Source: an uncultured Deinococcales bacterium (GTDB taxonomy: Bacteria; Deinococcota; Deinococci; Deinococcales; JAAFIG01). From it: a DNA stretch of 10,955 nucleotides. The stretch spans positions 6,298 to 17,252 of the forward strand of contig CAXTKV010000109.1 of assembly GCA_964244895.1 (NCBI GenBank), written 5' to 3'. Within the stretch, counting starts at the first letter, position 1. Each line of letters starts with the position of its first letter. The translations under genes and the position numbers were made by a program. This document shows, in pieces, positions 1,271-10,470 of the stretch. The notes under the pieces were generated by a model. That model ran no database searches. It saw nothing but the letters and a program-made list of their open reading frames with translations, and was not told the origin of the DNA.

Positions 1271-1336
1271 CGGTCTACCCAGCGCGACGACAGTGGTTGA
1301 TGTTAGGGATGAATATCATCAATCGCACACACGGGA

Positions 1337-1390
1337 AACACCGTCCAGGACAGTGTTATTTGCGCCACAATTCTCGCGTGCAGGATGGTC
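1337..1390 (-). repeat. Bipartite palindromic element, copy A (inverted orientation)
   Basis: Full site AACACCGTCC-A-GGACAGTGTT at 1337-1357 (centre 1347). Degenerate half-site on the minus strand, GACCATCC-T-GCACGCG, at 1375-1390 (centre 1382). Spacing 35. Confidence 0.8.
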
Positions 1391-1488
1391 TTTTTCTGGG
1401 AACCCGACTGGCTCGAGCGAGTTTGATTCACGCGTCGGCGCGACTTCGCGGGGCCGCTCAGGACTCACCTCAACTGAGGTCGTTCGGG

Positions 1489-1494
1489 TAGGCT
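1489..1494 (+). promoter_or_regulatory. -10 element TAGGCT of leaderless promoter
   Basis: TAGGCT-ggctccc-GTG(1502), with no SD. Confidence 0.65.
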
Positions 1495-1501
1495 GGCTCC
1501 C

Positions 1502-2617
1502 GTGAAAGCCGCCCTCGTATCGGTTTGTGTGATCGCCCTCGCGTGCGCCAGCGCCCTCGGTCAACCGGGCGCGAAGGGCAGCAGTTTCGGGCAGCCGGAC
1601 TTGACCCCGATTTTAGAGCGGGTGCGCGCCAGTTACGGCTTGCCGAGCCTGACGGCGGTGCTGGTCGAGGGCGGCAAGGTCGTGTCCAACGCGGTCGTGG
1701 GTGAACGCGCCATCGGCAGCGGCGTGTCGGTCACATTAACCGATCAGTACCAGCTCGGCAGCATCTCCAAGAGCTTCACCGCGACCGTGATCGCCAGGCT
1801 GGTCGAACAGGGCAAGTTGCGCTGGAATATGACCCTCGAAGAACTCCTTCCGGACATGAAAATACGAGACGCGTACAAATCCGTGACGCTCGAGATGCTG
1901 CTCTACCACTTCGCGGGATTCCCGGCGGATGTCAAGAACAAGAGCGTCTACGACTGGAACCTCGAGCCGGGCGCGGCCCGCAAAAAATACCTCGAGCTCG
2001 CACTGGTGAGCGTTCCCGAATTCAAACCCGGTGAGATGGTGGCGTATTCCAACATCGGGTACGTGATCGCCAGCCTGATCGCGGAACGCGCGGGCGGAAA
2101 GCCGTGGGATGCGCTGGTGCGCGAGATCGTGCTGGAGCCGTTGGGCATGAACTGCGGTTTCGGCGTGATCTTTCCAGCCCTGACCAACCCGCACCCGCAC
2201 GCCATCAAAGATGGGGGCGCGCAGGCGCTGGAACCCGCGGCGGGGAACGGCAACTCGCCCGTGCTGAACGGCGCGGACAACCTGCGCTGCAGCATGGGCG
2301 ATCTGGGTCTGTACCTGGCGGCGCACCTGGAAGGCGAACGCGGGCGGGACGGCATCCTCAGGAGCCAGACGTTCAAGTTTCTGCACCGCGCCCGCGCCGA
2401 TGGCGGTCAGGGCATCCGCGCGGCGCTCGGCTGGTTTATTTTTCCGGACGGCGAGATCTGGCACAACGGCAGCAACACCCTGAATTACGCCGAGATGATC
2501 CTGCTGCCCCGTCAGGACGCCGCCATCGCCGTGGCCACCAACGCCGCCGGGGGCGGAGCGGAGGCTCGGGCCGTGGCCGAGGTCTTCGAGGCGATCGAAG
2601 CGCTCGTGCCGCGCTAA
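1502..2617 (+). CDS. Exported serine hydrolase, beta-lactamase class C/AmpC-like family
   Basis: 371 aa with a signal peptide. SxxK (GSISKSF), YxN (YSNIGY), HxG (WHNGS) and the LLYHFAGF family motif are present. Confidence 0.9.
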   Translation: MKAALVSVCVIALACASALGQPGAKGSSFGQPDLTPILERVRASYGLPSLTAVLVEGGKVVSNAVVGERAIGSGVSVTLTDQYQLGSISKSFTATVIARLVEQGKLRWNMTLEELLPDMKIRDAYKSVTLEMLLYHFAGFPADVKNKSVYDWNLEPGAARKKYLELALVSVPEFKPGEMVAYSNIGYVIASLIAERAGGKPWDALVREIVLEPLGMNCGFGVIFPALTNPHPHAIKDGGAQALEPAAGNGNSPVLNGADNLRCSMGDLGLYLAAHLEGERGRDGILRSQTFKFLHRARADGGQGIRAALGWFIFPDGEIWHNGSNTLNYAEMILLPRQDAAIAVATNAAGGGAEARAVAEVFEAIEALVPR

Positions 2618-2618
2618 A

Positions 2619-2666
2619 AACACTGTCCTGGACGCAAAAAAAGAACGCCGTGCTGGACGGTGTTCT
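2619..2666 (+). repeat. Bipartite palindromic element, copy B (between convergent genes)
   Basis: Half-site AACACTGTCC-T-GGACGCA at 2619-2636 (centre 2629). Full site AGAACGCCGTGC-T-GGACGGTGTTCT at 2642-2666 (centre 2654). Spacing 25. The A-tract at 2636-2642 could serve as a U-tract for minus-strand termination. Confidence 0.9.
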
Positions 2667-2678
2667 CGAGCTTCGCGC

Positions 2679-3158
2679 TCAGTCGGCGCTGCCGATCTCG
2701 CCGCAGGCCACGCGCGCCCGATCGGTCTTGATCAGCACGGTGTGACCGATGACCGAATTCGGGCCGGGGGCGATGGTCAGGCGCGCGTTCAGGGTCGAGA
2801 TGATCTCGGAGCCGCTCGCGCCGACCACGAAATCCTCGAGGTTGCCCATCTGGCCTTTGAACTGATCGCCCGCCGCCGCGAAGGTCGGGCTGTTGTTGCA
2901 ATCACTGCCCGCGTGAATGGCGCTCAGGTACTTGCCGGGTTGAAAACCCACCACCCGCACGATGGTGCGCAATCCGCCCGCCGTCTCCGCGAAGGTGACC
3001 GTACCGACGTTCTTGCCGGACGGATCGATCAGCGATGCCGCAGCGGTCTTCCCGGTAATGCCGGACGCGTTGGCGGGTTGGGTGGCGGGCTTTGCGGCTG
3101 GCGCGCAGGCCGCCATGGCGAACATCGTGACCGCGAGCAACGGTGTCAATCGGTTCAT
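2679..3158 (-). CDS. Cu/Zn superoxide dismutase-fold lipoprotein with degenerate metal ligands
   Basis: ATG at 3158 preferred because TAGCTT lies 7 nt upstream; 159 aa. Lipobox-like MAAC. SOD_Cu motifs GTVTF, IHAGSDC, FAAAG, GNL, SVIGHTVLI and RVACGEI. Confidence 0.85.
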   Translation of the reverse strand: MNRLTPLLAVTMFAMAACAPAAKPATQPANASGITGKTAAASLIDPSGKNVGTVTFAETAGGLRTIVRVVGFQPGKYLSAIHAGSDCNNSPTFAAAGDQFKGQMGNLEDFVVGASGSEIISTLNARLTIAPGPNSVIGHTVLIKTDRARVACGEIGSAD

Positions 3159-3165
3159 GGACTTC

Positions 3166-3171
3166 AAGCTA
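3166..3171 (-). promoter_or_regulatory. -10 element TAGCTT of leaderless promoter
   Basis: Minus strand reads TAGCTT-gaagtcc-ATG(3158). Confidence 0.55.
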
Positions 3172-3241
3172 GACGCCGTATCTGAGTACAGGGTCGGGAA
3201 TAGATGATATTTCTCAGCAAGAACCTAACCGTGAAACGCGG

Positions 3242-3294
3242 CTGCTCGAGCCGCTGGAATCTACCCCGTCAACGGATTCCAGCGGCTCGAGCAG
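3242..3294. repeat. Perfect 20-bp inverted repeat (hairpin/cruciform), 13-nt loop
   Basis: CTGCTCGAGCCGCTGGAATC (3242-3261) and its reverse complement GATTCCAGCGGCTCGAGCAG (3275-3294). Confidence 0.9.
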
Positions 3295-3296
3295 GC

Positions 3297-3347
3297 AACA
3301 CCGTCCGGGACGCATCTTTAAGAACACCGTCCTGGACGGTGTTCTTA
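3297..3347 (+). repeat. Bipartite palindromic element, copy C (best preserved)
   Basis: Half-site AACACCGTCC-G-GGACGCA at 3297-3314 (centre 3307). Perfect palindrome TAAGAACACCGTCC-T-GGACGGTGTTCTTA at 3319-3347 (centre 3333). Spacing 26. Confidence 0.95.
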
Positions 3348-3351
3348 TTTT

Positions 3352-5436
3352 TTATGGGCCGAACGGTTGCGTCCAGATCGGCAATTCCAGACTGAAACGG
3401 CTGCCGCGTCCAGCTTCGCTTTCGGCGTCGAGCGTGCCGCCCATGGCTTCCAGCAGTTCGCGGGCGAGGGAAAGGCCCAGCCCGGCGCCGCCCGTGGTGC
3501 GCGCGCGGCTGGCATCGGTGCGGTAAAAGGGCTCGAAGATCCGATCCAAGTCCGATTGGTCAATCCCGATGCCGGTGTCCAGCACGCTCAACCGCACGCG
3601 ATCACCGATGGTTTCGGCTTCCAGGCGCACCAGCCCGCCTTCGGGCGTGTACTTGAGGGCGTTCTGCACCAGATTCACCACGGCCTGCGTCAGGCGCTGA
3701 CGGTCGGCGCGCACGCGCGGCAGGTGCTCCGGGATGGCGTCCAGCAGCGTGATGCGTCCAGCTTCGGCCACGGGTTGCAGGCTGCGCGCCAGCGAGCGCA
3801 GCAGTTCGCCGGGATCCACCGCCTCGAGGCGCACGTCGAGCTGTTTCAGGTCGGCTCGAGAGAGCGTAAAAAGATCCTCGACGAGTCGCTCGAGCCGCGC
3901 GACTTCCGTTTGTAAAACGCGGCGCACGTCGTCCTGGACGGACTCACCGCGCAGTTCAGCGCTTTCCAGGTGGGCGCGCATGACGGTCAACGGGGTGCGC
4001 AATTCGTGAGAGGCGCTGGCGGTCAAGCGCCGGTTGGCGCGCAGCAAGGATTCGACGGTGGTTTTCTCGCGCCCGAGGGCTTCGAGGTTGTGTTCCAACC
4101 GATCCGCCATCGCGTTCCAGCCGACACCCAATCGCGCCACCTCGTCTTCGCCCTCGACGGGCACGCGCACGCCCCAGCGACCAGCTTCGAGGGATTGCGA
4201 TCCGGCCAGCAAATTCTCGAGCGGCCCGGTCAGGCGGCGCGCCGTCAGGTAGCCCAGAAACCCGAGCGCCGCGAAGATCGGCAGAAAACTCTGTGAGAGC
4301 GTGTCCAGCACCAACGTCAGGTCGTGCGCGAGCTGTGAAACCACGTCCGAGAGCGGCGCGCTCGAGGGACTGGCCGGGCGCAGAACCGCCGCGATCACCC
4401 AGCGCCGCGACAGTCCGGGTACGTCCGGTTCATCCGCGAAGGCCGGGCAGCCCGCCAGCACCTCGTTGCCGATCACCGTGGCGCGGCAGCGTCCAGCGGC
4501 GTTGGCGTTCAGCACGTCCGCCCAAAGGGTTCTGAAGGTTTCCGGCAGCGGCCCGACCTCGAAGCGCGAGGGTCGGCTCGAGGCGATCACCTGAGCGTAA
4601 GGGCTGAGGATCAACGCGGTGCGTCCCGGCCCACCGACGGGTAATACGTCCATGTCGGGATCGGGTTCGATCACGCGCGGGCGGGGTCGGTTGACACCGC
4701 GCCGCAAGCTCTGCATCAACTGGCGCACCGCGTCGTCGTCCAGTCCCAGTTGCAGGGTCGGGGTGAAGGTCAGCGCCAGGTCTCGGGCCTCGCGCAGGGC
4801 CTGCCCGGTCAGGCTGCGGGACGGAGCGCGCACCAGCGACACCAGGCCGGGCAGCACGGCCACCAGCGCGCTGGCCAGCACGCCGCCGCCGAGGGCCAAC
4901 GCCGTCAATCGCCAGCGTAGACTGCGCCGTCCCTCGAGCCAGACCGCGCGGTACGAGTACGCGAACACGAAGCGCAGCGTGGCCGTCAAGACCAGCGCGT
5001 TCAAGCCCGTGCCCAGGAATTGTTGCGGGTCGGGGGCGGACAGCGCCTGAAATTCAAAGAACGGGCGCTCCGGCGGAATCAAGCGCGCCAGTTCCCCGCC
5101 CAGCGCGGCGAAGCCCAGTCCGGCCAGCGCACCGAACAGCGGAACGCGGGCCACGCGCCAGACGACGTGGCCGCGCGATGGTCGGAGCCGCAAGGCTCCC
5201 AGAAACCAGAGCGCGTGCTCACCGATGAAGGCCAGCAGTTCCGGCCACGGTGTGGGCACGAAGCGTTGCGTCCACATCAACGCCAGCGCCTGCAAGACCA
5301 GCGCGACCAGCAGCACTTCCAGGAGTGCCCTAGGGAACGGAGCGGAGTAGAAAATCCGGTGCGCCGCGCGACGAAGCCAGGTTGGCTCCTTCTCGAGCCT
5401 GAAGCCGGGGTGGGTTGAGGCTGGCTCGGGAATCAA
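3352..5436 (-). CDS. Membrane sensor histidine kinase (multi-TM N-terminus, extracytoplasmic domain, HAMP, HisKA, HATPase_c)
   Basis: H-box SHELRTPLT, N-box NLVQNALKY, G1 DTGIGI, F-box IFEPFYR, G2 GAGLGL and HAMP EDEVARLG..WNAMA. The TTG start is uncertain. Confidence 0.93.
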   Translation of the reverse strand: MIPEPASTHPGFRLEKEPTWLRRAAHRIFYSAPFPRALLEVLLVALVLQALALMWTQRFVPTPWPELLAFIGEHALWFLGALRLRPSRGHVVWRVARVPLFGALAGLGFAALGGELARLIPPERPFFEFQALSAPDPQQFLGTGLNALVLTATLRFVFAYSYRAVWLEGRRSLRWRLTALALGGGVLASALVAVLPGLVSLVRAPSRSLTGQALREARDLALTFTPTLQLGLDDDAVRQLMQSLRRGVNRPRPRVIEPDPDMDVLPVGGPGRTALILSPYAQVIASSRPSRFEVGPLPETFRTLWADVLNANAAGRCRATVIGNEVLAGCPAFADEPDVPGLSRRWVIAAVLRPASPSSAPLSDVVSQLAHDLTLVLDTLSQSFLPIFAALGFLGYLTARRLTGPLENLLAGSQSLEAGRWGVRVPVEGEDEVARLGVGWNAMADRLEHNLEALGREKTTVESLLRANRRLTASASHELRTPLTVMRAHLESAELRGESVQDDVRRVLQTEVARLERLVEDLFTLSRADLKQLDVRLEAVDPGELLRSLARSLQPVAEAGRITLLDAIPEHLPRVRADRQRLTQAVVNLVQNALKYTPEGGLVRLEAETIGDRVRLSVLDTGIGIDQSDLDRIFEPFYRTDASRARTTGGAGLGLSLARELLEAMGGTLDAESEAGRGSRFSLELPIWTQPFGP

Positions 5437-5467
5437 AACGGGTTGCTCGAGCTTCGGGGCGGGTTGT

Positions 5468-6172
5468 TCAGCCTTCGAGGCGATAACCCACCCCCCAGAC
5501 GCTGACCACGCGCTCGCCTTCTTGCGAGAGTTTGCGGCGCAAGCGCACGACGGTCGTGTCCACCACGCGATCCGATCCCTCGTAGGCCGGGCCCCAGATG
5601 TGTTCCAGCAAGTAATCGCGGCTGAAAGTGCGTCCGGGCTGGCGAATCAACATCAACAAAAGGTCGTACTCGCGCGGGGTCAGGTCGGTGGTGTGCCCCT
5701 CGACGCGCACCGCGCGGGCTTCGGGGTCGATCTGGATCGCACCGATCCGCACGGGTTCCCGAGAAATTTCCAGGGTTTCGCGCAGCAGTTGCACGCGGCG
5801 CAGCATCGCCCGGACGCGCGCCACGAGTTCCTTGAGGCTGAAGGGTTTGGTCAGGTAATCGTCCGCGCCGACTTCCAGGCCCAGCACCCGATCCGATTCC
5901 TCGGCGCGGGCGGTCAGCATCAGGATCGGCACGCTGGAGCGCGTCCCGGACGGGTTGTTCGGTGTCGAACGCAGCACCCTGGCGACTTCCAGGCCGTCCA
6001 CGCCGGGCAGCATCAGGTCCAGCACGATCAGGTCGAACATTTCGCGGGCGGTTCGCTCGAGCGCCTCGCGCCCGTCGGTGGAGAGACGCACCTCGAAGCC
6101 TTCGCTTTCCAGGTGGCGCGTCAGCACGCTGCCCAACTCGCGTTCGTCCTCGACCAGGAGCAGTTTCGTCAC
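5468..6172 (-). CDS. OmpR/PhoB-family DNA-binding response regulator
   Basis: Receiver motifs LLVEDE, LIVLDLMLPG, LMLTAR and DDYLTKPF. Winged helix LTPREYDLL..., VWGVGYRL. Lies directly upstream of the kinase. Confidence 0.96.
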   Translation of the reverse strand: MTKLLLVEDERELGSVLTRHLESEGFEVRLSTDGREALERTAREMFDLIVLDLMLPGVDGLEVARVLRSTPNNPSGTRSSVPILMLTARAEESDRVLGLEVGADDYLTKPFSLKELVARVRAMLRRVQLLRETLEISREPVRIGAIQIDPEARAVRVEGHTTDLTPREYDLLLMLIRQPGRTFSRDYLLEHIWGPAYEGSDRVVDTTVVRLRRKLSQEGERVVSVWGVGYRLEG

Positions 6173-6178
6173 GGGATC

Positions 6179-6184
6179 ATTCTA
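6179..6184 (-). promoter_or_regulatory. -10 element TAGAAT of leaderless promoter for the two-component operon
   Basis: Minus strand reads TAGAAT-gatccc-GTG(6172). Confidence 0.7.
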
Positions 6185-6231
6185 CGGTTTGGAACCAGGA
6201 AAACCGTGAGCCATCGCGTTCTAGAGCCTTC

Positions 6232-6249
6232 AGAACGCCCTCCAGGACG
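6232..6249 (+). repeat. Degenerate solo half-site of the palindromic element
   Basis: AGAACGCCCTCC-A-GGACG versus consensus AGAACACCGTCCNGGACG (2 mismatches). No clear partner site. Confidence 0.5.
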
Positions 6250-6389
6250 AAGAATTGTGTTTTCTGGAATTCAGTCCAAAACCCGAGCGCACGCCGCACG
6301 CCAGCCGATCCCGAGCTGTCGAATCGAGATGTTGGCTCGGGTCGGGTTCCGGCGTCCCACCGGGCAATTCTGGGTGGGCTTGCGCGGGG

Positions 6390-6448
6390 ACACCGTCCCA
6401 GACGCAATTCCTTCGGATAAGAAGGACACCGTCCTGGACGGTGTTCTT
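6390..6448 (+). repeat. Bipartite palindromic element, copy D (upstream of dnaG)
   Basis: Half-site ACACCGTCC-C-AGACGCA at 6390-6406 (centre 6399). Full site AAGGACACCGTCC-T-GGACGGTGTTCTT at 6422-6448 (centre 6435). Spacing 36. Confidence 0.92.
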
Positions 6449-6478
6449 TCGTTTCAGGAAGTCGGGCTCAAAAGGGAT

Positions 6479-6519
6479 TAAGATGTCCACCTGACCGTCA
6501 CTTGACCGTCCGTGGGGAG
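6479..6519 (+). promoter_or_regulatory. Putative dnaG -10 (TAAGAT), 11-bp tandem repeat and Shine-Dalgarno (GGGGAG)
   Basis: TAAGAT at 6479-6484. CACCTGACCGT/CACTTGACCGT at 6488-6509. GGGGAG at 6514-6519, 5 nt before ATG 6525. Confidence 0.5.
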
Positions 6520-6524
6520 CCCGC

Positions 6525-8261
6525 ATGAAGGATGAGATTCGGCAACGACTCGACCTCCGAGAGATCGTCTCGGAGTACGTCGCGCTGAAACCGTCCGGGC
6601 CGAACAAGTGGAAGGGTTTAAGTCCGTTCAGCAAGGAAAAAACGCCCAGCTTCTACGTGAACGCCGCCAAGCAGGTCTACTACTGCTTTTCGACCAAACA
6701 GGGCGGCGATGTCTTCGATTTCATCATGAAGGTCGAGAACATCTCCTTCCGCGAGGCGATGGAAAAGCTCGCCCTGCGCGCGGGCGTGCAACTCGAGAGC
6801 TACAAGAGCGACGACAAACGCAAACGCGACCTGTATGAAGTCAACACGCTGGCGCTCGAGTTCTTCCGCAAGAATTTGCCGGGCTCCGAGGCGCTTTTCT
6901 ACCTCGAGCGGCGCGGCGTCAGCCCGGACATGATCGAAGCCTTCGGGCTGGGTTGGGCTCCGGCGGGCTACGACAACCTCCTGAAATTCGGCAAGGCCCG
7001 AAACATCTCTGAGCGCGAATTGCTCGAGGCCGGACTTCTGTCCGAATCCGCCGAGAACGGACGGATTTACGACCGCTTCCGCGCGCGCGTGATGTTCCCG
7101 ATCAAGGATTACCTGGGGCGCGTGATCGCCTTCGGCGGGCGCGTGCTGGACGACAGCAAACCCAAATACCTGAACAGCCCCGAAACCGAGGTCTTCAAGA
7201 AACACGACACGCTCTACGGCCTCGAGATGGCCCGCAAGCACATCCAGGAAACCGGCGACGCGGTCGTGGTCGAAGGTTACATGGACGTGATCGCCATGCA
7301 CCAGCACGGCTTTCACGGCGCGGTCGCCAGCCTGGGCACGGCGCTCACGCAGGATCACGCGCACCTGCTCTCGCGCCAGGGCGCGCGGCGGCTGGCGCTC
7401 CTGTTCGACAACGACCCGGCGGGGCAACGCGCCACGCTGGCCGGGCTGGATCAGGAAATCGGCAAGATGTTCCTGGTGCGCGCCGTGGTCGCACCGGGCG
7501 GCAAGGACGCCGCCGACATCCTGCTGGCGGGCGGGCGGGACGAACTGGCGGCGGCGCTGGCGGGCGGTTTGACTGAAGTTGAAGTGCGCCTGAACGCGGT
7601 GCTGGAAAAATTCGACGTGAATACCCTGGATGGCAAACGCGGCGCGCTCCAGGCGTTGCTGCCGCGCCTGCGCCCGCGCGATGTCTTCGATCCAGTCGCG
7701 CTCGATCTGCAACGCATGGTGATCGACCGGCTCGGCCTGGAACCCAAACGATTGGACGAACTGCTGAACGCCAGCAAACCCAACCCGCGATCCGGCACGT
7801 CCATAGACCGGATTCAGGTCTCGGGCCTGATGTCGCGCGGCGTGGGATCGGGTGATCGCGGCGAGATCCGGCTGGCGCAACTGCTGGTGCAGAACCCGTC
7901 GCTGACGGCCAAGCTGGACGGCGAGGCGCTGTTTGAAAATCCGTTGGTGATGGAGATCATCGCGGTCGCCCGCACCGCCACCACCAGCGACCAGATCTTA
8001 GAGCACTTCCGGGGTCGCCCGGAAGCCAGCATGCTCTTCGAGGGCCTGATGGACGGCCCCGAGGGTTCTCCCGGCCAAGACGAACTGGCCGTGGACGAGA
8101 TCAGTTCGCGCAAGCGCGAGGAATCCATGAAGCGCGAACTGGCCGCCACCAAAGCCAAACTCTCGAGCGTCACCAGCGACGAGCAGGTCGCGCTGTTGCG
8201 CCAGTGCAGCGAGTTGCAGCGCGGCATCGAGGCCGAACGCCGGTTGCGCCTGCGAAATTAG
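6525..8261 (+). CDS. dnaG: DNA primase
   Basis: 578 aa. N-terminal ZBD-like region (PF.KEKTPSF.V...YYCF...GGDVF), YDRFRARVMFPI, IAFGGR, PKYLNSPET, and Toprim motifs EGYMDV, ASLGTALT and FDNDPAG. Confidence 0.97.
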   Translation: MKDEIRQRLDLREIVSEYVALKPSGPNKWKGLSPFSKEKTPSFYVNAAKQVYYCFSTKQGGDVFDFIMKVENISFREAMEKLALRAGVQLESYKSDDKRKRDLYEVNTLALEFFRKNLPGSEALFYLERRGVSPDMIEAFGLGWAPAGYDNLLKFGKARNISERELLEAGLLSESAENGRIYDRFRARVMFPIKDYLGRVIAFGGRVLDDSKPKYLNSPETEVFKKHDTLYGLEMARKHIQETGDAVVVEGYMDVIAMHQHGFHGAVASLGTALTQDHAHLLSRQGARRLALLFDNDPAGQRATLAGLDQEIGKMFLVRAVVAPGGKDAADILLAGGRDELAAALAGGLTEVEVRLNAVLEKFDVNTLDGKRGALQALLPRLRPRDVFDPVALDLQRMVIDRLGLEPKRLDELLNASKPNPRSGTSIDRIQVSGLMSRGVGSGDRGEIRLAQLLVQNPSLTAKLDGEALFENPLVMEIIAVARTATTSDQILEHFRGRPEASMLFEGLMDGPEGSPGQDELAVDEISSRKREESMKRELAATKAKLSSVTSDEQVALLRQCSELQRGIEAERRLRLRN

Positions 8262-8316
8262 ACCGTCCCGGACGCGTTATTCTGAATCTAAAAAAGACCG
8301 TCCAGGACGGTGTTCT
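8261..8316 (+). repeat. Bipartite palindromic element, copy E (between convergent genes, overlapping both 3' ends)
   Basis: Half-site GACCGTCC-C-GGACGCG at 8261-8276 (centre 8269) begins in the dnaG stop codon. Full site GACCGTCC-A-GGACGGTGTTCT at 8296-8316 (centre 8304). Spacing 35. Confidence 0.9.
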
Positions 8317-9682
8317 CGAGCCAGGTGCGGGCACCCGAGCCGCCCAATCGCAGCAAGGTGGCGACGCACGCACCATCGAGCGGTTTGAGCGGGCCGTTCT
8401 GACTGGTCTTGTAGGCCGCCGTGCCGACGTAACCCGCCCCTTTCGGGCTTTTCGCGTCGAAGGTGCAGACCTGGATCGTGGCTGCACCCGCGATTTCCAG
8501 GGTGGCGCGGTTGGTTTTGGGATCGAAATAAAATGTGGCGTCCGCGCGGATCTTGCCGGTGGTGGCCGGGCCGGTCGGTCTAGCGTTGACCAGTCGCGTC
8601 AACGCCAGGTCGTAGCGGGTTTTGCCCAGGTCAACCATCCAGACCTGCCCGAGCGCGATGCGCGGCGGCCACGCAGCCAGGTTCGAGGACGCCGTACTCG
8701 AGGGTGAAGCTGGACTCGTTGGTGCAGCACTCGGGGGTGGGGTCGCAACGCTCGGGGTCGCCGCGGGCGCGGCGCTCGGGCCGCTCGAGAGCACCGCGTT
8801 GCAGGCCATGTTCGTCAACTCGAAGGCCGCGTTCGGATCGGCGCGCCGCACCACCGACCCGGTCATGACCGATCCAGCCAACGAACCCGCCGGGAACACG
8901 CAGGCCGTGATGGTCGTGCCGTCCGAGAGTTGCAGGATCGCGTTCCGCTCCTGCGGCGCGTAGTAAAAAAACGCGTCCAGGCTCGAGCCGCCACCGACCG
9001 GGGTGGCCGTGCCCGTCGGGTCGCCATCGGCGTCCGTGCCGTTCAATGCGACGTTCCACTCGCGCAATCCGGGAATCGTGACGCGCCACGTCTGACCGGA
9101 TTGCAACCGCACCCACGGCGAAACCGGAGGGGTGGTGTCGGGCGTCGGATTGAGGTTGATGCCCAGTTGCGCCAAAGGATCGAGGCTGGCGGCGCAAACG
9201 TTATCAATCGGTTTGAAACCCGCGTCGGATTTGGTGCGCGTGAAGGTCGCACCGAACATCGTTTCACCCTGAACGCTGCCCCGATCGAAGGTGCACAGCG
9301 TCGTGATTGACCCGTCCGTCAGCGCCAGGTACGCCTGATCGTCGGCGCGTTTGAAGTAAAAGAACGCCTGCTGATCCTTGATGTCCTTGGTTTGCGCGAC
9401 CGCCTTGCCGACCGGATCGCCGTCCGTATCGCGCCCGGTCAACTTCAATTCCCAGGTGCCGATGCCGTTGATCGTGATCACCCAGGTCTGGTTGAGCTCG
9501 AGCTTCGGTGGCCAGCCGATCGGCCCGGCGGGTGGCGCGGTCGGTGCTGGCGGTGTCTGCGCCAGGCCGACCGAGAAACTCAGAACTGCAATTGCCCCCA
9601 GTCGCGCGAGCGAAGACCGTCCTGCACGGCGTCTTCTGGATTCAGGCGAGCGGTCAGCGACGGTCTCAGCTCGATCAAACAT
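8288..9682 (-). CDS. Secreted hypothetical protein with three tandem ~108-aa beta-rich repeats
   Basis: 464 aa. Basic n-region plus hydrophobic segment ending GLA-Q. Repeats share Q.W, A.FY and two Cys, and are separated by Pro/Ala/Ser linkers. TAGGCT lies 7 nt upstream of the ATG. Confidence 0.85.
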   Translation of the reverse strand: MFDRAETVADRSPESRRRRAGRSSLARLGAIAVLSFSVGLAQTPPAPTAPPAGPIGWPPKLELNQTWVITINGIGTWELKLTGRDTDGDPVGKAVAQTKDIKDQQAFFYFKRADDQAYLALTDGSITTLCTFDRGSVQGETMFGATFTRTKSDAGFKPIDNVCAASLDPLAQLGINLNPTPDTTPPVSPWVRLQSGQTWRVTIPGLREWNVALNGTDADGDPTGTATPVGGGSSLDAFFYYAPQERNAILQLSDGTTITACVFPAGSLAGSVMTGSVVRRADPNAAFELTNMACNAVLSSGPSAAPAATPSVATPPPSAAPTSPASPSSTASSNLAAWPPRIALGQVWMVDLGKTRYDLALTRLVNARPTGPATTGKIRADATFYFDPKTNRATLEIAGAATIQVCTFDAKSPKGAGYVGTAAYKTSQNGPLKPLDGACVATLLRLGGSGARTWLENTVLDGLF

Positions 9683-9895: not shown

Positions 9896-10135
9896 ATGAA
9901 GACTGCGATTAGCATCCCCGACGAGACCTTCGAGGCCGCAGAACGCCTCGCCAAGCGCCAGGGTCGTTCGAGAAGCGAACTGTACGCCGCCGCCGTGCGG
10001 GAATATTTGAAACGCAACGGTCACGACGATCTGACGGCCCGCATTGACGCCGCCATAGAGGGTCAGGAGACCCGACCCGACGCGTTCTTCCAGGCGCTCT
10101 CGGCGCGAACCCTCGGTTCGGCAGAAGACTGGTGA
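9896..10135 (+). CDS. Ribbon-helix-helix (CopG/ChpI/MazE-like) antitoxin
   Basis: MKTAISIPD...AERLAKRQGRSRSELYAAAVREYL fits the RHH pattern. 79 aa, with a GTGA overlap with the toxin gene. Confidence 0.88.
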   Translation: MKTAISIPDETFEAAERLAKRQGRSRSELYAAAVREYLKRNGHDDLTARIDAAIEGQETRPDAFFQALSARTLGSAEDW

Positions 10136-10470
10136 GGCGCGGAGAGATCTGGTGGGCGGAATTACCCGATCCTTCCGGCTCCGGCCCCGGAGGTCGCAGA
10201 CCCGCACTGGTGATCTCGAGTGATGGGTACAACCGGAGCGGTATTCAGACGGTCGTGATCGCGGTCATGACCTCGAATACGAAGGCCGCGAACTTCCCCG
10301 GCAATGTCTGGGTCTCGGGCGAGGAGTCGGGCCTCTCGAGAGACAGCGTGGTCAACGTTACGCAACTGTTCACGCTCGATAAGCGCGACCTCAGCGAGCG
10401 CGTCGGTGAACTGGCGCTCGACAGCCTGGATTTGGTGGATCTCGGTCTGCGAACGGTATTAGAGCTGTAG
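10132..10470 (+). CDS. mazF: PemK/MazF-family endoribonuclease toxin
   Basis: MRRGEIWWAEL..P.GS.PG.RRPALVIS.D.YN, V.IAVMTSN and SGL.RDSVVNVTQLFTLDK. Confidence 0.93.
   Translation: MRRGEIWWAELPDPSGSGPGGRRPALVISSDGYNRSGIQTVVIAVMTSNTKAANFPGNVWVSGEESGLSRDSVVNVTQLFTLDKRDLSERVGELALDSLDLVDLGLRTVLEL

Follow-up and report, generated by a model that had tools for sequence, protein, structure and literature searches.

Paired, helically spaced intergenic sites in a Deinococcales genome: a likely binding site for an IHF-like DNA-bending protein

Copies of the motif in the window

The DNA analysed here, referred to as the window, comprises 10,955 nucleotides from the genome of an uncultured Deinococcales bacterium (G000; assembly 91% complete), and carries genes for GH114-like, beta-lactamase family, histidine kinase, Cu/Zn-SOD-like and response regulator proteins and for dnaG, with dprA at its end. 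A preliminary description of this sequence had reported five copies of a bipartite palindromic element at gene boundaries, of which A and D were placed between divergent, B and E between convergent, and C between tandem genes. These copies are real and their gene contexts are as described: with at most one mismatch, ACCGTCCNGGACG matches the window 17 times against 0.15 matches expected, a number reached in 0 of 200 shuffles, and the copies are members of a genomic family of about 5,000 sites. The pairs and solo sites, to which no strand is assigned, are as follows.

1335..1394, no strand: Pair A, centres 1347/1382, 35 bp apart, between divergent GH114-like and beta-lactamase family genes
2617..2666, no strand: Pair B, centres 2629/2654, 25 bp apart, between convergent genes
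3295..3345, no strand: Pair C, centres 3307/3333, 26 bp apart, between tandem histidine kinase and Cu/Zn-SOD-like genes
6232..6256, no strand: solo weaker site, centre 6244, score 16.1, upstream of the response regulator
6387..6447, no strand: Pair D, centres 6399/6435, 36 bp apart, upstream of dnaG
8257..8316, no strand: Pair E, centres 8269/8304, 35 bp apart
9611..9635, no strand: solo near-palindromic site, centre 9623, score 21.9

Pair B begins at the stop codon of the gene at 1502-2617, and the arms of Pair E run over the stop codon of dnaG as well as the final codons of its convergent neighbour. Some details of the earlier account need adjustment. The solo element noted at 6232 does correspond to a weaker site, but the second solo site, which lies near the uncertain start of the open reading frame 8288-9682, had been overlooked, and the proposed CCWGG centre does not extend to the right arm of B, which has GCTGG. 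The layout of a half-site plus a full palindrome applies to the 26-, 35- and 36-bp classes but not to the 25-bp class, the largest, which consists of two sites that are each strong on the outer and truncated on the inner side. Hairpin folding of the DNA, suggested earlier for the unit in general, applies to B, C, D and E (z -2.7 to -5.9) but not to A (z 0.11).

In a relative of about 93% identity, Pairs A and C are bridged, the latter with a 1-bp deletion at 3315, and Pair E is present with six substitutions, three of them in the cores, and is thus not better conserved than its surroundings. Upstream of dnaG, the position of Pair D, the relatives G005, G007, G009 and G011 carry degenerate single sites.

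A genome-wide family of phased pairs

The copies are not confined to the window, a possibility that had been raised earlier, but belong to some 5,000 sites and about 1,900 pairs in the genome, with a consensus that is a 25-bp pseudo-palindrome, RAGAACAC-CGT-N5-ACG-GTGTTCTY. The pairs are intergenic in 1,790 of 1,838 classifiable cases (97%), and 69% of all intergenic gaps of this genome carry the site. Pairs are commonest between convergent genes, where they occupy 403/565 gaps, compared with 238/615 divergent gaps, and they are biased to positions just past stop codons (941/1,484 within 40 bp). They are missing from islands of 15-45 kb, and the phasing of sites to -10 boxes is limited to weak peaks at 44, 57 and 67 bp. 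The family of pairs is restricted to one lineage, and de novo k-mer counts in G006 (400 kb), G003 (308 kb) and G005 (121 kb) revealed neither an expanded dialect nor any pair spacing. A literature search on the exact motif gave unrelated papers only, and there was no Rfam match; the earlier account had not recognised the sequence as a described family.

The most frequent centre is CCAGC/GCTGG, found in 1,196 of the 4,639 strong sites. In the same set, pyrimidine-purine steps occur at -5/-4 and +4/+5 in 99% and 98% of sites and AA at -10/-9 in 81%, frequencies which are partly built in by the PWM used to call the sites. The resulting sequence pattern, two pyrimidine-purine steps separated by 9 bp and flanked by A-tracts, matches the kink geometry of HU and IHF.

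The distance between the two sites of a pair is quantised at 25, 30-31, 35-36 and 41 bp, that is, in steps of one DNA turn, and 1,936 of 1,960 neighbour pairs (at most 60 bp apart) fall at 24-27, 29-31, 34-37 or 40-42 bp. Information is concentrated in the arms (1.5-2 bits), compared with about 0.2-0.4 bits in the spacers. On two metagenome contigs from a related species (80-84% identity), a pair is found at the orthologous place with its arms and spacing kept and its spacer changed. The information in the arms and the retention of spacing while spacers drift are unlike neutral decay.

Sites in replication origins and CRISPR leaders

Sites of the same pattern are conserved across the phylum, also in genomes that lack the expansion, at two kinds of locus, the origin of replication and the leader of type I-C-like CRISPR arrays. 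Origins were fetched by DnaN alone, and 27 of 30 could be anchored, from which G000 and G006 were removed because they had prompted the test. In 12 of the remaining 25 Deinococcota origins, which are related by descent and hence not independent, YGT-N5-ACR (at most one mismatch) is centred 19 bp past the DUE-proximal pair of DnaA boxes; it lies at 20 bp in one further origin and at none of the other offsets from 9 to 32. The motif is missing in 12/25, among them three genus-g4 genomes, three family-f5 genomes and four Deinococcus-family genomes with a CGC..GCG variant. The interspace past the DnaA boxes is bound by IHF or HU in E. coli and in T. maritima (PMC10325909).

Type I-C-like leaders were fetched by Cas2 (PF09827) alone. 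In 17 of the 23 leaders from outside G000, likewise related by descent, the motif is found at -23/-24 from the first repeat, and in 22/23 if up to two mismatches are allowed, with other offsets averaging 0.18 and reaching 3 at most. A second copy at -116/-117 is present in six of these leaders and in that of G000. The central 5-mers of the leader sites, which are unconstrained by the pattern, fall within the 40 most frequent of G000 in 14/17 cases, versus 101/995 in the background. In IHF-bearing bacteria, used as a control, an array was found at 4/6 type I-C loci, and the dyad of the IHF consensus lies at -23 and -116 in the leaders of Geminicoccaceae and Rhizobium, at -118 in N. vulgaris and, weakly, at -24 in Zymomonas. 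The motif is missing from the I-C leader of T. thermophilus SG0.5. Type I-E leaders are without it at an IHF-like distance (2/29 at -21 and 2 at -18), and a look-alike is located at -9 in 23/29 of them. DdrO/RDRM sites and low-affinity DnaA boxes share TGT/CGT with the motif, but neither would explain the dyad at both leader positions.

Candidate binding protein, alternative explanations and related systems

Two readings had been offered initially, a REP-like non-autonomous element and a genome-wide protein-binding system, and it is the latter that the quantised spacing and the positions in oriC and leaders support. Given some 5,000 copies, spacings in helical turns and these positions, the motif is likely the site of a bending protein and not a jumping element. 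From sequence comparisons, we consider it likely that a sequence-specific, IHF-like bender, probably the HU of Deinococcota, binds the site as double-stranded DNA, and that the copies, mostly in phased pairs, would thereby fold the DNA at gene boundaries. HU was found in 31/31 Deinococcota tested, as a single copy in several motif-bearing genomes, and 30/31 scorable proteins have the arm tip GV[KR]PGT. G000 encodes three HU/IHF proteins, none of which reaches the cut-offs for IHF-alpha or IHF-beta. Among the matches to its HU is PDB 2NP2 (E 7e-12), which we take to be Borrelia Hbb, a homodimeric HU/IHF protein with site preference. Sites also occur upstream of hup genes in several f1 genomes, though not phylum-wide. 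Deinococcota are reported to be without IHF in passages of PMC10325909, and PMC8421141 describes an IHF site of 35 bp that includes an A-tract and is kinked by the prolines of IHF at points separated by 9 bp. The HU of D. radiodurans has been described as structure-specific, and the main text of a 2026 preprint is without the words 'sequence' or 'motif'.

By analogy with IHF, the arm prolines of an HU homodimer would enter the DNA at the two pyrimidine-purine steps, which are separated by 9 bp (-5/-4 and +4/+5), and the A-tracts lying another 5-8 bp outwards would be clamped by the protein. A spacing of 35-36 bp would then correspond to two abutting footprints of about 35 bp, and 25 bp to an arrangement one turn closer. 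In both cases an angle of about 130-155 degrees round the helix is predicted to separate the two bends, which would be nearly in phase in the rare 30-31 and 41 bp classes. Since the pairs follow closely on stop codons and are most frequent in convergent gaps, their likely function is to fix the tips of plectonemes or to take up supercoils generated by transcription.

A protein other than HU is the alternative that survives best, but we regard it as rather unlikely. The site would then be bound by another IHF-like architectural protein, for example YbaB/EbfC or an uncharacterised phylum-wide dimer that reads CGT-N5-ACG in two major grooves, with the rest of the bending-protein reading unchanged. 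The positional evidence (oriC, leaders and the IHF control) identifies a role and not a protein, YbaB/EbfC is present in 5/5 genomes tested, and a helix-turn-helix dimer would also suit a GC-rich palindrome whose half-sites are separated by 11 bp. However, at -23 and -116 the motif and the IHF site have their dyads on exactly the same base, and the 9-bp geometry of pyrimidine-purine steps and A-tracts is specific to HU/IHF; a DUF1931 histone was found in only 1/5 genomes and not in G000.

We consider it unlikely, and somewhat more so, that the pairs are a selfish REPIN- or MITE-like element without host function, which carries a host site as passenger and whose transposase was lost or is missing from the 91%-complete assembly. 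Such an element would account for the restriction of the pairs to one lineage, their bias past stop codons and their absence from islands, and the pairs do resemble REPINs in that they are inverted doublets, lie between genes and can form a hairpin. The spacers have a weak directional consensus and a modest excess of close neighbours over an independent-position model, the two arms of a 25-bp pair complement each other somewhat better than shuffled partners do (2.73 vs 3.17 mismatches), and in G117 a site lies inside a conserved repeat family of about 100 bp, with a weak partner 36 bp away. The spacer excess and the 25-bp arms would be compatible with some copying. Against an element of this kind, the doublet is not copied as a clonal unit, since 822/825 pairs of the 25-bp class and 554/554 of the 35-bp class are unique and the spacer is unconserved, and the arms of the 35/36-bp pairs are no more complementary than shuffled partners. 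Neither PF01797 (0 matches) nor the IS110 family (PF02371) was found in G000. The RAYT or TnpA gene flanked by clustered copies, for which the preliminary description had suggested looking, did not emerge: the one RAYT-like gene (C12; NF047646 at 50 bits, under the 80-bit cut-off) is flanked instead by an unrelated GTAG-type REP, GTAGGGGC, from a family of 107 matches. No unpaired GTAG or CGTC tag, which belongs to the definition of REPs in PMC3733652, stands beside the stem, as CGTC lies inside the palindrome. Direct repeats that would indicate a target-site duplication are not in excess at offsets 10-16 and k 2-8, bar one weak 3-mer, and the orthologous sites compared, which cover few loci, are all filled (2/2 metagenome contigs; A, C and E in the close relative). 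The conserved spacing likewise speaks against a selfish origin. The proposed REP/REPIN-like element, for which these searches found no cognate transposase and whose copies are near-unique, is therefore not upheld. A mobile origin of the copies in the distant past is conceivable; on the bending-protein reading, a repeat that is inactive today may have dispersed them first, with selection on arms and spacing retaining them afterwards.

It is very improbable that the pairs were selected as RNA hairpins, serving as terminators or stabilisers of mRNA 3' ends: they lie near stop codons and in most convergent gaps, four of five window copies fold and the 25-bp arms co-vary slightly, but the transcribed strand shows no asymmetry of T-tracts, G-U mismatches are as frequent as A-C ones (503 vs 530; 318 vs 332) with no bias to G-U, the 35/36 class is without co-variation, divergent gaps also hold pairs, no Rfam family matches, and loop lengths in 10.5-bp steps make no sense for RNA. 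More remote still is a DNA uptake sequence built up by biased transformation, as in Neisseria or Haemophilus, which shows comparable density (here about 1 per kb) and inverted pairs and would suit the nearby dprA, given that coding enrichment over the reversed control is equal in G000 (867 vs 186) and the non-expanded G006 (24 vs 5), that intergenic enrichment is 2,998 vs 13, and that uptake would need no fixed positions in oriC or CRISPR leaders.

A bolder form of the bending-protein reading, for which we see the chances as evenly balanced, is that Deinococcota HU evolved an IHF-like specificity independently, with CGT-N5-ACG read by the arm tip GV[KR]PGT, and acts phylum-wide in the opening of oriC and the integration of CRISPR spacers. 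In one lineage the site, written some 5,000 times as helically phased pairs into 69% of the intergenic gaps, would then amount to a folding code for the whole chromosome that is encoded in its sequence. HU is generally regarded as lacking sequence specificity, and, according to PMC10325909 and PMC13769266, what substitutes for IHF at origins and CRISPR leaders of IHF-less phyla is an open question. A concrete site with two conserved positions is directly testable in T. thermophilus and D. radiodurans, and thousands of natural site variants are on offer. A 'REP-like' family would thereby be reinterpreted as hard-wired chromosome architecture, which may extend to other unexplained phased intergenic motifs.

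Several known systems share individual features with this family. The HRM of Lactococcus lactis, a short intergenic motif of about 1,000 copies and unassigned function, has a similar layout of pairs with a periodic spacing of about 10 bp; its sequence is unrelated, and we know of no link to a bending protein. In E. coli, RIB/BIME-1 elements are REP pairs which carry an IHF site at the 3' ends of transcription units. Like the present family, they are dispersed intergenic repeats that bring binding sites for a bending protein close to the ends of genes, the subject of Boccard and Prentki (1993). In RIBs, however, the REPs flank one IHF site, whereas here the arms themselves are the sites, the spacers are not conserved and there are thousands of copies. 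REP/REPIN-RAYT systems are also intergenic, near stop codons and often in head-to-head pairs, and CGTC-tagged REPs, like this family, have no dedicated transposase in the account of PMC3733652, which reports CGTC families from five other phyla and whose text is without the words 'Deinococcus' or 'Thermus'. Unlike REPs and REPINs, the present family is spaced by helical turns, occupies conserved positions in oriC and leaders, and is without an unpaired tag, a cognate RAYT or clonal copies. Borrelia Hbb shows that a homodimeric protein of the HU family can prefer particular sites, though its lineage and its site differ from those considered here. To our knowledge, no genome-wide paired amplification accompanies it. 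IHF sites (WATCAR-N4-TTR) differ from the GC-rich, near-palindromic motif in consensus, and the HU-family proteins of G000 score below the IHF cut-offs; nevertheless, the two share the oriC interspace, the I-C leader dyads at -23 and -116/-118 (IHF sites being found in type I-C and I-F leaders), kink steps 9 bp apart, flanking A-tracts and a unit of about 35 bp.

Paired sites in the window and in the source genome

The preliminary description had reported five paired copies of a palindromic element, and these proved to be real: the window contains 17 matches to the motif, a 25-bp pseudo-palindrome with the short form YGT-N5-ACR, against 0.15 expected. Their site centres are listed here.

Site centres in the window
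Pair A: 1347/1382
Pair B: 2629/2654
Pair C: 3307/3333
Pair D: 6399/6435
Pair E: 8269/8304
Solo sites: 6244 and 9623

Genes beside the sites include those for GH114-like, beta-lactamase-family and Cu/Zn-SOD-like proteins and for a histidine kinase and its response regulator, and further dnaG, an unknown protein, an RHH/PemK pair and dprA. The RHH antitoxin and PemK/MazF-like toxin genes (9896-10470) adjoin dprA and are thinly covered in run X1, which contains a relative of about 93% identity, and an ORF at 8288-9682 (464 aa, repeated domains, start uncertain) has no Pfam or NCBIfam match.

The copies are not confined to the window, since 4,993 sites reach a matrix score of at least 12 in the source genome, G000 (5.12 Mb assembly, 91% complete), versus 46 in the reversed genome. 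They form 1,900 pairs and 23 larger groups, with another 1,122 standing singly; by our own gene calls (4,466 genes), 1,790 pairs are intergenic, 48 fall inside coding regions and 62 lie at the edges of contigs. Sites occur in 2,255 of 3,263 gaps of at least 50 bp, and pairs in 403 of 565 gaps between convergent genes, 1,101 of 2,083 between tandem genes and 238 of 615 between divergent genes; 941 of 1,484 lie within 40 bp after a stop codon. Stretches of 45 kb on contig C5 and 38 kb on C15 are free of sites. Of 1,960 spacings between neighbours at most 60 bp apart, 1,936 fall into two series, with one helical turn per step in each (24-27 bp, 1,011; 29-31 bp, 60; 34-37 bp, 825; 40-42 bp, 40). 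The arms are sharply conserved. The spacers are AT-rich and almost every one is unique (822 of 825 in the 25-bp class, 554 of 554 in the 35-bp class); their directional consensus is weak, and close neighbours among them are somewhat in excess.

The hexamer CTCGAG is hugely over-represented in a HIP1-like manner, with about 21,900 sites in G000 and 4.8-6.3 per kb in samples of relatives (G006, G003, G005). Its frequency is highest 11 bp outward from the motif centre (620 cases), and 44-47% of the 35/36-bp spacers contain it.

Mobility, transcripts and relatives

A REP-like non-autonomous element, as initially suggested, is not borne out: profile searches of the 91% complete assembly with PF01797 and PF02371 returned no matches, and the single RAYT-like gene, which scores under the cut-off, is flanked by the GTAGGGGC REP, a family separate from the motif with 107 matches genome-wide. 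Copies of the GTAGGGGC type lie at the start of this gene (1405-1971 of locus L265, contig C12) and inside it. No target duplication was found at the G000 pairs. Complementarity above that of shuffled partners is limited to the 25-bp class (2.73 vs 3.17 arm mismatches; 4.13 vs 4.09 in the 35-bp class), G-U bias between arms on the sense strand is absent, G-U equalling A-C, and the sites show no terminator-type T-tract asymmetry. An Rfam search of the repeat gave no match. In the open-access literature (main texts), we found neither the motif nor a sequence-specific Deinococcota HU described. Enrichment in coding sequence is equal in G000 and a non-expanded relative, which argues against a DNA uptake sequence.

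At the few loci that allow an empty-site comparison, the pair is filled in L091 and L092, two of four metagenome matches, both from a related species, and pairs A, C and E are bridged by the run X1 relative, in which pair E shows 6 differences, 3 of them in cores. The pairs in L091 and L092, loci selected by motif on their own side but not on that of G000, retain arms and spacing (25 vs 25 and 26 vs 25) at the orthologous position, and their spacer is altered.

The expanded family was not found in 40 relatives or in 300 phylum genomes, and no congener of G000 occurs among 19 family genomes. Relatives of its Cas2 and HU proteins place G000 in Deinococcota. The top count among the 300, 10 exact 16-mers in G117, lies inside a conserved longer repeat with a weak second site 36 bp from the motif (counted by hand in locus L099), an example of a repeat able to carry a site pair of this kind. 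This repeat family (L093-L102) measures about 100-200 bp and includes, besides motif and weak partner, degenerate 7-bp tandem units at the flanks. Upstream of dnaG, four relatives have degenerate single sites. In genus g4, a single contig of G007 (C526, L110) and one of G003 (C56, L109) bear G000-like pairs, spaced 25 and 34-35 bp, which may reflect transfer or binning contamination. In L103-L106 (G138, G176), putative integrated elements have motif copies between their iteron-like repeats, and copies also lie upstream of a promoter-like sequence. The metagenome contig L090 (40% GC) carries an inverted repeat pair, CACCGTCCCGCACGGTG, that has a 25-bp spacing but looks unrelated.

Bend positions at origins and CRISPR leaders

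The alternative first offered, a genome-wide protein-binding system, is favoured by the presence of the motif at bend positions of oriC and CRISPR leaders. The accessible text of PMC10325909 places the bend by IHF or HU in E. coli and T. maritima within the DnaA-box interspace and reports the phylum to be without IHF. In the oriC of G000 and its relative G006, the motif centre lies 19 bp past the DUE-proximal DnaA-box pair. A box-plus-motif pattern was matched in 30 of 301 genomes, mainly at their origins, against 3 matches of the control; because this set is motif-selected, an unselected set was drawn from 28 dnaN loci, 25 of them anchored (G005 gave no match, the G001 locus is cut and a second G112 copy was dropped). 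With at most one mismatch, YGT-N5-ACR stands at 19 bp in 12 of the 25 and at 20 bp in 1, with all remaining offsets between 9 and 32 bp empty; including G000 and G006, the totals are 14 and 1 of 27 origins, rows which, like those of the leaders, share descent and are not independent counts. In family f5 origins (L157, L159, L162, L165), a TATCG-containing block replaces the motif in the interspace. Near 1175 on G000:C106, upstream of a sugar-epimerase-like gene, 5 further DnaA boxes form a second cluster that encloses motif sites and is possibly a datA- or DARS-like locus.

Most type I-C leaders contain multiple IHF sites (10.1101/2023.05.26.542337, accessible text). In G000, the leader of the C36 array carries the motif twice, at 24 and 117 bp before the first repeat. 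Among 30 loci chosen by Cas2 PF09827, 24 have an array (two repeat starts hand-corrected), and 17 of the 23 non-G000 leaders carry the motif at -23/-24, or 22 when up to two mismatches are allowed, where other offsets average 0.18; a second position, -116/-117, is occupied in 6. The free central 5-mers belong to the top 40 of G000 in 14 of 17 leader cases versus 101 of 995 in the background. As a control, six I-C loci of IHF-bearing bacteria yielded four arrays: IHF-consensus dyads lie at -23 and -116 in Geminicoccaceae (1 mismatch each) and Rhizobium (2 each), at -118, distal only, in N. vulgaris, and at -24 in Zymomonas (2 mismatches, among several weak matches). The T. thermophilus SG0.5 leader, from which the motif is absent, counts against a conserved leader role; the A. 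silvanus locus has no array. Type I-E leaders do not have the motif at about -20; in 23 of 29 a look-alike is centred at -9 instead, formed by a conserved TTTTGC[CT]GT..TCA[AT]GT block directly before the first repeat (L205-L234).

A candidate binder and the comparison with IHF

HU is the probable binder. It is present in 31 of 31 phylum genomes, and none of the three HU/IHF-family genes of G000 scores above IHF cut-offs. The DrHU dimer has been modelled on 36 bp, with arm-dependent binding to tight loops shown, in a preprint whose accessible text leaves sequence preference unmentioned (10.64898/2026.08.18.745388). YbaB, found in five of five genomes, could possibly bind the sites in place of HU; the DUF1931 histone, found in only one of five, was rejected. 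Two kinks per site, introduced by an HU-type dimer, would bend the DNA into a U-turn. Computed from spacing, 25 and 35-36 bp would set two bends 130-155 degrees apart, and the angle would be about -34 degrees for 30-31 and 41 bp, which would yield defined zig-zag or loop shapes directly past stop codons. IHF itself is described as pinning plectonemes and buffering supercoils (PMC9519438, accessible text).

YR steps occupy positions -5/-4 and +4/+5 of the motif, and A-tracts lie further out, a sequence pattern matching the layout of IHF, with prolines 9 bp apart, an A-tract and a 35-bp site (PMC8421141, accessible text). The arm tip of the phylum HU is GV[KR]PGT (in 30 of the 31 proteins that could be scored among 33), whereas that of IHF is GRNPKT. 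Overall, the motif would act as IHF sites do without being one of them.
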